Origin: Escherichia phage ECD7
Strand: one strand, 5' to 3'
Sequence record: NC_041936.1
Length of the DNA: 64,000 bases
The notes beneath the pieces are model-generated. The model saw only the letters and a program-made list of their open reading frames with translations, did not search any database and was not told where the DNA came from. A program made the position numbers and the translations under genes. Positions 21,339-30,539 of this stretch are shown here, in pieces; position 1 is the stretch's first letter; every line of letters starts with the position of its first letter.

Positions 21339-21674
21339 TTATCCTTTCTTAAACAAATTGCGAATCCAGTATACAAACGGGATCTCTTTAAACTTGAATT
21401 TCTCTATAGTTAATTCTTTAGTAGCAAGATGAATACCATAAGCATCATGTGTCACGATATGCCATTTTCTATAGTCCAAATGTGAACAACCGTCTGGATC
21501 TAGGTTAATAAGAGTTTCTCGCTCACTAGGATTATTTTTCCACAATTTTGTAATAGGATCGCACATAATTCGACCTAGCGTACCATGAATAATCTCACAA
21601 CGGTAAAGTTTTCCAGCAGTGAGATAGGCGCACCCGTCATAGTCGGTATAAACAAACACTTCTTTAACACTCAT
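21339..21674 (-). CDS. hypothetical protein (small paralog family with 21732..21992 and 21974..22168)
   Basis: ORF 21339..21731 trimmed to MSVKEV behind AAGGAG; shared GY..D..G......L...C.HLD..W motif. Confidence 0.45.
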   Translation of the reverse strand: MSVKEVFVYTDYDGCAYLTAGKLYRCEIIHGTLGRIMCDPITKLWKNNPSERETLINLDPDGCSHLDYRKWHIVTHDAYGIHLATKELTIEKFKFKEIPFVYWIRNLFKKG

Positions 21675-21702
21675 TTTAATACTCCTTTGTTTCGATGGGG
21701 GT

Positions 21703-21731
21703 ATATTACTACCCCCGTTTTGTTGTGTCAA
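21703..21731 (-). promoter_or_regulatory. early promoter TTGACA-17-TAATAT with stem-loop GGGGGTA/TACCCCC around the -10
   Basis: Upstream of the 21674 start; SD AAGGAG. Confidence 0.5.
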
Positions 21732-21992
21732 CTACTTTTTCAAGATTTTTTTAATTGCGTTCCAAAGACCTTTATTCTCAGGTTGTTTTGGTTCTTCGAT
21801 CAGTGTCCATGTTCGACCGTCTAAGTGTGCACAATTTTTAAGACAAATAAAAATCTGGTGTCCATTATCATCACGGATATAACCACTATTCGCAAATCTT
21901 TCATGTGGTGTATATTCATACAGTGTATTTGGTGTAATATACTTGCGGTTACTATAAGGTGTCATTACATATTTCATGGTACTAACTCCCAT
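21732..21992 (-). CDS. hypothetical protein (paralog)
   Basis: ORF track 86 aa. Confidence 0.4.
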   Translation of the reverse strand: MGVSTMKYVMTPYSNRKYITPNTLYEYTPHERFANSGYIRDDNGHQIFICLKNCAHLDGRTWTLIEEPKQPENKGLWNAIKKILKK

Positions 21993-22168
21993 TTATCACC
22001 GCGAAGATGAGAACATCCACCATCAAGAAGGATCGTAATACGAAACCCCGCATCATCTTCAATATACCCGATTGTCGGTGGATTTTCGTCGTCTCGTGCC
22101 GGGGTAAAATCATACATCTTTCCCGGTGTGATATCATTGCCTTTATTGCTATTGGTATAAACTTGCAT
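21974..22168 (-). CDS. hypothetical protein (paralog)
   Basis: ORF track 64 aa. Confidence 0.4.
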   Translation of the reverse strand: MQVYTNSNKGNDITPGKMYDFTPARDDENPPTIGYIEDDAGFRITILLDGGCSHLRGDKWELVP

Positions 22169-22189: not shown

Positions 22190-22888
22190 CTAACCACGGG
22201 TATAGTGTTCCAGAACAACTGTCAGATGAATATATTCTAATAGATCTTTCCAAAAGTCAACATCTGGTTCTTCCGGCATACCGTTTTTCTTTGCCTCTTC
22301 ACGCGCGAGTTTAACACGCTCGTAGAGGTCTTTCAATTCTTCCCGCACATTATCAAATGTTCTTTCTCCTAACTTACACGCTAAAATCGAAGAACGTCGT
22401 GCGAGCGGGAATTGTAGATCACCTGTCTGGTAGATTTCAAGTAGCTGATAACCAACACGCAGAGCATGAGAAAGATCTTTCCAGTTACTGAAATACTTTT
22501 CCGATTTGGCTACCTGTTTCTTGAGATAACCAGACAAACCCCACATACCAACATGATAGAATTTATCGCGATGTGTTCGGATGTATTCCCATTCTCTGGA
22601 GGATTCGATCAACATGTTACTAGGCGCGTGCACCATGTCAATAGCGCCGATATCGCCTTTACATGCCAGATTGATAAACCGTTTTAGACTGAACATATTA
22701 ACGTCAATATCGTCTTTGGTGTTCTTGATCCCTTGACCGCTAGTGCTTTGATCATAGTGTTCTTTCATCGATCCTAAGATAATTTCTTTCGCAGTCGGAA
22801 CAAAGATACCACGATAATCTTTATCTGAATTTTCAGTATCAAGGCCGTATAAGTGAGATCCGAAGACCATTTTAACCATTGTATGCAT
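22190..22888 (-). CDS. nucleotidyltransferase-fold protein (pol-beta-like NTase superfamily), function unknown
   Basis: 232 aa; N-terminal VFGSHLYGLDTENSDKD matches the GS-x(9-13)-DxD NTase signature. Confidence 0.5.
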   Translation of the reverse strand: MHTMVKMVFGSHLYGLDTENSDKDYRGIFVPTAKEIILGSMKEHYDQSTSGQGIKNTKDDIDVNMFSLKRFINLACKGDIGAIDMVHAPSNMLIESSREWEYIRTHRDKFYHVGMWGLSGYLKKQVAKSEKYFSNWKDLSHALRVGYQLLEIYQTGDLQFPLARRSSILACKLGERTFDNVREELKDLYERVKLAREEAKKNGMPEEPDVDFWKDLLEYIHLTVVLEHYTRG

Positions 22889-22933
22889 AATTAAACCCTC
22901 AGTTGATTAAGAGATTGCATCATATCATCATAA

Positions 22934-22963
22934 AACGAAAAAGCCAACCCTTTTCGGATTGGC
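22934..22963 (-). terminator. rho-independent terminator after the grcA-like gene
   Basis: Hairpin GCCAATCCGAAAAGGGTTGGC + TTTTTCGTT on the minus strand. Confidence 0.6.
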
Positions 22964-22974
22964 TTGATGAAAAA

Positions 22975-23391
22975 TTAGAGAGATTCGGTAAAGGTACGCG
23001 CGATAACGTCACGCTGCTGGTCTGGAGTCAGACTATTGAAGCGCACTGCGTAACCAGAAACGCGAATTGTAAGCTGCGGGTACTTCTCAGGATGTTCAAC
23101 AGCGTCCAGCAACATTTCTCGTAACAATACGTTAACATTCAAATGCTGACCACCTTCGACAACCGGAGCACCATTATCTACAATGACAGGACGGAAGCTA
23201 GTTGTGTGCAGTGCCAGCGAATCGACGTCTTCTGCGGTGATCACATGGTCTTCTGCGAAAGTTTTACTAACAATTACTTTAGCGCCGATCAGTGCTTTCG
23301 GTTCGGATACCAGAATCATAGGCGCGAAGTGTCCACCAATAATAGTACCTTTATGCTCACCTTTCATGATTTGAATTGCTTTAAATTCCAT
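22975..23391 (-). CDS. grcA: autonomous glycyl radical cofactor (GrcA/YfiD-like)
   Basis: 138 aa; C-terminal [12 protein letters not shown]...[36 protein letters not shown] is close to E. coli GrcA; T4 is known to carry a YfiD homolog. Confidence 0.85.
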
Positions 23392-30068: not shown

Positions 30069-30539
30069 TTACAGTTTGGTCGTCCACTCCAGGTCTAGAT
30101 CTTCGACATACTCATGAGATCGGACAATCTCTAAATCGAACTCTAGGTCAGTGCCAAATTTACGCGCACCAACATCATAAGAAAGCGTGATATGCGGTAC
30201 ATATTCAGGATAATCCCACGTCGCACCTAAAGCAGTGCCGATATCGTGTCTGAATTGCATGTAGTCGCTTTCAAATGCCAACACAAGCGCATTAGTACCG
30301 GATTGAGTTTCAAACACTTTCAGATGACACAGAGAGCCTAAAAACTTTTCACCCTCTTCCGGGATAAACGGAACATAGACACGAGAATATAAGATAGTGC
30401 TATGCAGTTTATCACGAGGAACAGCATTAGGCAGATCGTAGAACTCCTGCAATTTTTCAATGCGGTCTAGTGTATCCTCAGTGAATTTAACCGCAGCATA
30501 TGTACCTTTAACGGATTCTCGAAACGGGGTCATAATCAA
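30069..30539 (-). CDS. acb1: 2H-phosphoesterase, Acb1-like (anti-CBASS; T4 gene 57B position)
   Basis: 156 aa; two H-x-T/S-x motifs (HSTILY, HITLSY) of the 2H family; lies upstream of 57A and gene 1 as T4 57B does. Confidence 0.65.
   Translation of the reverse strand: MIMTPFRESVKGTYAAVKFTEDTLDRIEKLQEFYDLPNAVPRDKLHSTILYSRVYVPFIPEEGEKFLGSLCHLKVFETQSGTNALVLAFESDYMQFRHDIGTALGATWDYPEYVPHITLSYDVGARKFGTDLEFDLEIVRSHEYVEDLDLEWTTKL

Follow-up and report, generated by a model that had tools for sequence, protein, structure and literature searches.

A stretch of 64,000 nucleotides from Escherichia phage ECD7 (NC_041936.1), referred to here as the window, carries on its minus strand, at 22190..22888, a gene for a nucleotidyltransferase (NTase) of 232 amino acids, which an initial annotation made from the letters alone had described as a stand-alone protein of unknown specificity. 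Here, we show that this gene is real and conserved, but that it is an already catalogued NrdC.11/RlaP nucleotidyltransferase of RB49-type phages. At the level of the family, the label of unknown specificity is outdated, the protein being an ortholog of T4 NrdC.11 and a member of the Pfam family PF10127 (RlaP). By analogy to characterized relatives, it appears rather probable that the enzyme contributes an accessory step to the Pnkp/Rnl1 tRNA repair pathway of the phage, in which it would extend RNA 3'-OH ends by one or two nucleotides and thereby counter anticodon nucleases that excise a nucleotide. The sole unusual feature of the window gene is the loss of an insert, which is a minor variant.

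Conservation, family membership, and predicted fold

The open reading frame (ORF) extends from an ATG at 22888-22886 to a stop codon at 22192-22190 (232 codons, minus strand) and lies in Krischvirus DNA, that is, DNA of an RB49-like, T4-type phage. Over 3.5 kb around the gene, the window shares 97.6 to 98.4% DNA identity with Krischvirus genomes, including GEC-3S, Phi1, and RB49 (57 records). The RB49 counterpart is RB49p098, named nrdC.11, with the RefSeq product "nucleotidyltransferase." A database cluster with 149 members (P0001) has the same sequence as the window protein, which is also identical or nearly so across the 57 phage records. Comparison with RB49 revealed 14 synonymous differences versus 1 nonsynonymous difference (ratio of nonsynonymous to synonymous substitution rates [dN/dS], 0.018), and dN/dS was 0.018 to 0.023 among the Krischvirus copies. 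The gene is under strong purifying selection. Together, ORF, Pfam and PHROG matches, DNA identity, and dN/dS identify 22190..22888 as the coding sequence of an nrdC.11 ortholog.

Homologs of the protein were detected by tblastn in 1,618 of 50,697 phage records, mostly of T4-like phages of enterobacteria, Aeromonas, and Acinetobacter, with remoter homologs in Bacillus, Mycobacterium, and Gordonia phages. Many NrdC.11 homologs are labeled "thioredoxin" in GenBank and UniRef, apparently because the gene name nrdC was propagated, and one is labeled "HNH homing endonuclease." The assignment as nucleotidyltransferase is itself old: a genome comparison of T4-like phages from 2006 already annotated NrdC.11 in this way, under COG3541 (PMC1524935).

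Membership of the window NTase in the RlaP/NrdC.11 family is virtually certain. The protein matched PF10127, described as "RNA repair pathway DNA polymerase beta family," with 53.6 bits (E = 3.4e-14), where the curated gathering cutoff is 23 bits, and the match formed one contiguous stretch placing residues 7 to 191 on positions 24 to 198 of the 249-position model. PHROG 388, "nucleotidyltransferase," was matched with E = 2.1e-79. A total of 288 homologs were found, and PF10127 was present in 120 of 120 among the matches listed; 3,575 cluster representatives were matched at E ≤ 1e-3. A search of NCBIfam with the protein gave no match, and searches of PDB sequences, with the single protein as well as with a profile of 50 sequences, found no relatives.

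The N terminus MHTMVKMVFGSHLYGLDTENSDKD contains G10-S11, followed after ten residues by D22-K-D24, and agrees far beyond chance with the signature hG[GS]-x(9-13)-DxD of DNA polymerase beta (Pol-beta)-type NTases; it was this motif (GSHLYGLDTENSDKD, 22817..22861, minus strand) that the initial annotation had correctly read from the sequence. That annotation had also made its reading dependent on conservation of the catalytic aspartates in orthologs, and D22, D24, and D62 were indeed invariant in 50 homologs. In the same alignment, G10, S11, N56, and D60 were invariant as well, as were W136, K137, H141, and R144 in the helical domain. The conserved motif NTKDDID (N56 to D62; 22703..22723, minus strand), in which conservation among homologs reaches 90% or more at T57, K58, and D59, ends with D62 at the start of the strand formed by residues 62 to 67. 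Given the topology of Pol-beta NTases, D62 is probably the third catalytic, metal-binding carboxylate. Alignment of the phage proteins with canonical RlaP by hhalign (94% probability, E = 1.2e-7, 20% identity), which covers only the N-terminal ~120 columns, placed the phage motif on GSRAWGFPSxDSDYD and D62 on the conserved aspartate of "lDinGWD."

An AlphaFold2 model of the NTase was compact and confident, with a mean predicted local distance difference test score (pLDDT) of 91.3 and a predicted template modeling score of 0.87. In this model, residues 1 to ~115 (22544..22888, minus strand), which include the part aligned to canonical RlaP, form an alpha/beta NTase domain with strands at 2-9, 24-30, 44-48, 62-67, and 93-96, helices between them, and pLDDT values mostly above 90; DxD lies just before strand 24-30. 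The C-terminal half is predicted to be a HEPN/KNTase-C-like bundle (residues 116 to 232; 22193..22543, minus strand), all-helical over residues 116 to 230, with five helices. Foldseek comparison of the model with the PDB returned the kanamycin NTase ANT(4'), HalB of the Hailong system, LinB, 3c18, and AadA (E, 3e-5 to 1e-3; template modeling [TM] scores of about 0.4), so that the structural neighbors combine an NTase domain with a helical one. Pfam assignment, conserved catalytic residues, AlphaFold2 model, and structure searches thus agree with the Pol-beta NTase fold and helical C-terminal half anticipated by the initial annotation.

RNA-repair context and a proposed role in tRNA repair

A scan of 185,579 species genomes yielded 80 bacterial loci with the closest relatives of the window NTase (25 to 53% identity), for which we clustered the neighboring ORFs, four to either side of the match, and annotated the largest clusters. 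The top three recurrent neighbor families were the RtcB ligase (10 loci), the regulator RtcR (10 loci), and Ro60/TROVE (6 loci), and at least one of them was found within four ORFs at 20 of the 80 loci. In a Nitrosospira locus (L030, 1555-9158), the gene order is Ro60-x-RtcB-RtcA, followed by an NrdC.11-like protein of 323 amino acids, a canonical RlaP of 255 amino acids (175 bits), and Hen1. By bacterial operon context, the NrdC.11 clade is firmly tied to RNA-end repair. Tandems of this kind, in which an NrdC.11-like gene (~320 amino acids, weak PF10127 score) precedes a canonical RlaP gene (~265 amino acids, strong score), were present at 14 loci, including L030 and L062 (226-7781), and since the two types occur side by side so often, they are probably not redundant.

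The name RlaP reportedly goes back to Burroughs and Aravind in 2016, according to papers citing them. A preprint by Carruthers, Fatma, and Huang (bioRxiv, December 2025) characterized two enzymes from Pseudomonas, PfRlaP and PaRlaP, whose genes lie between rtcB and rtcA (PMC12776372). Both transfer one or two nucleoside monophosphates (NMPs) to the 3'-OH of RNA, accepting any nucleoside triphosphate and also dATP. They require a free 3'-OH and are inactive on DNA and protein, RNA but not E. coli proteins being labeled; Mn2+ or Co2+ and the 5' half of a cleaved-tRNA mimic are favored (PMC12776372). When RlaP acted before ligation, a tRNA from which one nucleotide of the anticodon loop was missing regained part of its aminoacylation, and the authors proposed RlaP as the remedy for "smart" ribotoxins, among them RloC, that remove a nucleotide once they have cut (PMC12776372). 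The crystal structure of PfRlaP shows an N-terminal NTase domain and a C-terminal helical domain, with a cleft, and the same work names T4 NrdC.11 as a member of the RlaP family, in cluster 5 (PMC12776372). For phages, the RNA-repair prediction was made by Iyer et al. in 2021, with reference to Burroughs and Aravind (PMC7824862).

The window NTase shares with Pseudomonas RlaP (PF10127, cluster 1a) the elements GS...DxD...D in register and a similar core length of ~250 amino acids, and probably also the plan of an NTase domain joined to a helical domain, as judged from the AlphaFold2 model on the window side and from the published description of PfRlaP on the other. With the activity transferred from these characterized enzymes, the phage protein would use a two-metal mechanism, probably with Mn2+, for the template-free addition of one or two NMPs to an RNA 3'-OH, preferably on the 5' half left when a tRNA is cut in its anticodon loop. 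During infection, it might act between Pnkp (pseT) and RNA ligase 1 (Rnl1, rnlA). Pnkp would strip the 2',3'-cyclic or 3'-phosphate and phosphorylate the 5' end, leaving a 3'-OH for the NTase, which could then restore the nucleotide taken by a nucleotide-excising host anticodon nuclease of the RloC type; Rnl1, a 5'-P/3'-OH ligase, would seal the extended 3'-OH to the 5'-P. Some functional tRNA might be regained in this way and a host defense based on translation shutoff defeated. We infer that the Pnkp/Rnl1 chemistry is suited to such a step, because Pnkp yields the 3'-OH that is needed and Rnl1 seals the extended end; this route would also sidestep the 3'-phosphate problem raised for RtcB (PMC12776372). 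RB49-type phages encode both partners, at a position beyond the limits of the window; in RB49, pseT (Pnkp) and rnlA (Rnl1) are found at 127.7 to 130.6 kb, ~75 kb from nrdC.11 at 52.8 to 53.5 kb. RB49 also has a second, short "polynucleotide kinase" ORF near nrdB (RB49p229, 132333-132809), annotated as similar to bifunctional polynucleotide kinase/RNA ligase.

In T4, the region nrdC.11-mobD.3 can be deleted in the laboratory (PMC9825161), which fits an accessory, host-dependent function in counter-defense. The proposed activity resembles that of class II CCA-adding enzymes, which also add nucleotides without template to an RNA 3'-OH, restoring functional tRNA, and also occur as accessories of phage RNA repair (PMC7824862). 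These enzymes differ in that they belong to another Pol-beta family, are much larger, and modify the acceptor end, where they are strictly specific for CCA; no sequence match between them and the window NTase was found. Among the roles initially considered for the protein, tRNA or RNA 3'-end modification is thus the one that gained support, from Pseudomonas RlaP (PMC12776372) and from the RNA-repair operons, whereas nothing in our analysis pointed to alarmone synthesis or to interference with nucleotide signaling.

Several observations weigh against the proposed repair function. The characterized RlaP enzymes come only from Pseudomonas and are ~20% identical to the window NTase, aligned over the N-terminal ~120 residues only. 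Even for these, the in vivo role is only proposed, and since nucleotide choice is unspecific, most of the repaired products would be wrong (PMC12776372). Whereas rtcB and rtcA flank the Pseudomonas genes, the phage gene adjoins no RNA ligase, its neighbors being a glycyl-radical cofactor gene and small ORFs; the designation stand-alone is correct in this sense, and in this sense only. The tandems of NrdC.11-like and RlaP genes suggest that NrdC.11-type enzymes may differ from RlaP in precisely which reaction they catalyze or which substrate they use, and the likely non-redundancy of the two types therefore limits a literal transfer of the Pseudomonas activity. Finally, the window form lacks an insert of ~100 amino acids, including the motif KYGVKGSR, and substrate recognition could be altered.

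The NrdC.11 type, and especially the insert-less Krischvirus form, could catalyze a different reaction, for example, the synthesis of oligonucleotides without a primer or from a protein primer, or the tagging of particular RNAs of host or phage, and might serve in counter-defense against a system other than anticodon nucleases. We regard this as unlikely, though conceivable because of the tandem arrangement with RlaP in bacterial operons and because HalB was the best structural match.

It is improbable that the likeness to HalB extends to a shared function, in which the NTase would synthesize free or protein-primed oligo(deoxy)nucleotides as a signal, for example, keeping a Hailong-type DNA-gated channel closed or jamming host nucleotide signaling, and would have no part in RNA repair. 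HalB (PDB 9dbh), an anti-phage NTase that synthesizes oligodeoxyadenylates, shows 13% identity and no detectable sequence relationship to the window NTase, and it was absent from the results of both PDB sequence searches, with the single protein and with the profile. Its TM scores of 0.36 to 0.48 were no better than those of aminoglycoside NTases, so that the likeness is one of fold. A PADLOC search gave no significant match (best E = 0.03, which is meaningless), and no HalA-like partner gene lies by the window NTase; the closest bacterial relatives reside in RtcB/RtcA/Ro60/Hen1 operons, not beside channel genes. Furthermore, HalB works processively from a protein primer with dATP as its substrate, whereas the characterized RlaP members extend RNA by only 1 to 2 nucleotides (PMC12776372).

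A kinship in function with MNT- or ANT-type enzymes appears quite improbable, too. Here, the protein would AMPylate and so neutralize a host toxin, e.g., a HEPN-domain RNase, or, like aminoglycoside NTases, would modify a small molecule. ANT(4')/MNT-type NTases do resemble the window protein in having a four-helix KNTase-C/HEPN-like bundle behind the Pol-beta NTase domain, but at TM scores of ~0.4 and 10 to 13% identity this is the generic likeness of any Pol-beta NTase with a helical bundle. Their substrates are aminoglycosides or proteins, whereas Pseudomonas RlaP labeled RNA and not E. coli proteins or DNA (PMC12776372), and they occur in other genomic contexts, the setting of the closest relatives of the window NTase being RNA-end processing rather than toxin-antitoxin pairs or antibiotic resistance.

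The short Krischvirus form and the missing insert

The window NTase and T4 NrdC.11 (PHROG 388) belong to the same orthologous clade, with 41 to 48% identity over the shared parts and the common motifs FGSHLYG...SDxD, NTKDDID, and WKxxSHxxR. They differ in length. Most NrdC.11-type proteins of phages and bacteria comprise 310 to 350 amino acids (T4 type, ~336), and full-length collinearity of the window protein with the T4-type protein fails, with ~100 residues absent. The long forms carry this segment between window residues ~129 and ~131, and because of it they match the window protein in two stretches in PHROG and phmmer comparisons. The segment opens with the nearly invariant motif KYGVKGSR and, in an AlphaFold2 model of the T4-type protein, is predicted to comprise one helix, several beta-strands, and a long helix (residues ~131 to 240). 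On short forms the Pfam RlaP model matches contiguously, in long forms the match breaks at position ~143, and the 232-amino-acid protein therefore has the core length of the family.

In a neighbor-joining tree built on the shared columns, computed by this method only and without support values, the window protein grouped inside the phage long-form clade together with P0002, a protein of 234 amino acids that is 57% identical to it. On the simplest reading, the insert was lost secondarily, since the short forms nest inside the long-form clade. Other insert-less members (P0143, P0153, P0230, and L045) occur sporadically, which suggests that the insert was lost repeatedly. The contig encoding P0002 (L086) shows the same synteny as the window, with genes for M15 endolysin, a 160-amino-acid ORF, a 39-amino-acid ORF, Gly_radical, an inserted HNH homing endonuclease, and RlaP. 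Judging from selection and from the conserved divergent ortholog, the short NTase form is clearly predicted to be functional. The opposite reading, a decaying remnant left by a non-functional internal deletion in a ~336-amino-acid NrdC.11 gene, would account for the ~100 missing residues, with the clade's nearly invariant KYGVKGSR among them, and for the secondary loss within the long-form clade, but it is effectively refuted by the low dN/dS (0.018 to 0.023) among Krischvirus copies, the nearly invariant protein in 57 phage records, retention of the short form in a divergent phage of the same synteny whose protein is 57% identical, the intact catalytic residues, the compact and confident AlphaFold2 model, the contiguous match to the 249-position RlaP model, and the sporadic occurrence of other insert-less members.

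Genomic surroundings of the nrdC.11 gene

The NTase gene neighbors a Gly_radical gene (vs.6), an M15 endolysin gene, regB, and small ORFs, and unlike its T4 ortholog, it does not lie near nrdC, which in RB49 is ~13 kb away. The grcA-like Gly_radical gene (Pfam PF01228) is located at 22975..23391 on the minus strand. The initial annotation had placed the NTase gene directly upstream of it and without a promoter of its own. On the minus strand, which carries both genes, transcription reaches the Gly_radical gene before the NTase gene; the latter therefore lies downstream, separated by a spacer of 86 nucleotides. Nor was the statement on the promoter upheld, considering that this spacer holds a conserved terminator hairpin, followed by a weak extended -10 site and GAGGG.

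The hairpin, with the sequence AAGCCAATCC-GAAAA-GGGTTGGCTT and a T-tract (22931..22965, minus strand), was identified as intrinsic terminator-like by scan, RNA folding, annotation in GEC-3S, and conservation in L086. The hairpin proper (22965..22941) has a GC-rich stem of 10 bp and is followed by the tail TTTTCGTTTT. It folds with a free energy of -18.4 kcal/mol (z = -4.6), a stability that no sequence among 200 shuffles attained; in the GEC-3S record, it carries a terminator annotation. The identical 10-bp stem (AAGCCAATCC/GGGTTGGCTT) follows the Gly_radical gene in the divergent phage contig L086 (3909-3932, plus strand), where the NTase is 57% identical, and between window and L086 the stem is better conserved than the flanking coding sequence. 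This suggests that the hairpin after the Gly_radical gene may be a functional terminator or an RNA-stability element. With this conserved hairpin between the two genes, simple co-transcription of grcA and the NTase gene is disfavored, and we rejected an operon of the two as the default.

A consensus scan found a weak sigma-70-like promoter candidate, TTGGCT-17-TG-n-TATGAT (22919..22947, minus strand), with 9 of 12 matches and an extended -10 TG; it overlaps the 3' arm of the hairpin. Such promoter-like sites are frequent in this AT-rich DNA, with 21 found versus 11.8 expected. The Shine-Dalgarno sequence GAGGG, read at 22896..22900 (minus strand), lies 7 nucleotides 5' of the NTase ATG. That the NTase gene has no promoter of its own and that it forms an operon with grcA are thus both unproven.

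In some relatives, a gene for an HNH/NUMOD4 homing endonuclease is inserted between the Gly_radical and NTase genes, as in L086 (3951-4547) and in four phage records (H19, H20, H23, and H24). The latter match the window in two pieces with ~620 bp extra, and the window is without this insertion. Directly 3' of the NTase gene are three tandem small ORFs on the minus strand (21974-22168, 21732-21992, and 21339-21731), which are mutually paralogous (36 to 42% identity), share a ...C-x-H-L-x4-W... motif, and have no Pfam match. Farther away, at 30069-30539 (minus strand), the window encodes a T4 57B homolog of 156 amino acids with two HxT/S motifs (HSTI and HITL), which matched the Pfam family Acb1 (anti-CBASS) with E = 1.5e-51 and the 2'-5' RNA ligase superfamily weakly. 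The RB49 57B protein, misleadingly named "RNA ligase" in RefSeq, was considered as a nearby ligase partner of the NTase and rejected, as it is Acb1 and not an RNA-repair ligase.

The gene, its NTase fold, and its family were already present in databases and in the literature, and the present finding adds little to them; a role in the repair of tRNAs that have lost a nucleotide by excision had been proposed in publications from 2016, 2021, and 2025. The compact Krischvirus form of 232 amino acids is a convenient minimal enzyme of this family, and its comparison with the insert-bearing T4 form offers a natural approach to the role of the insert.

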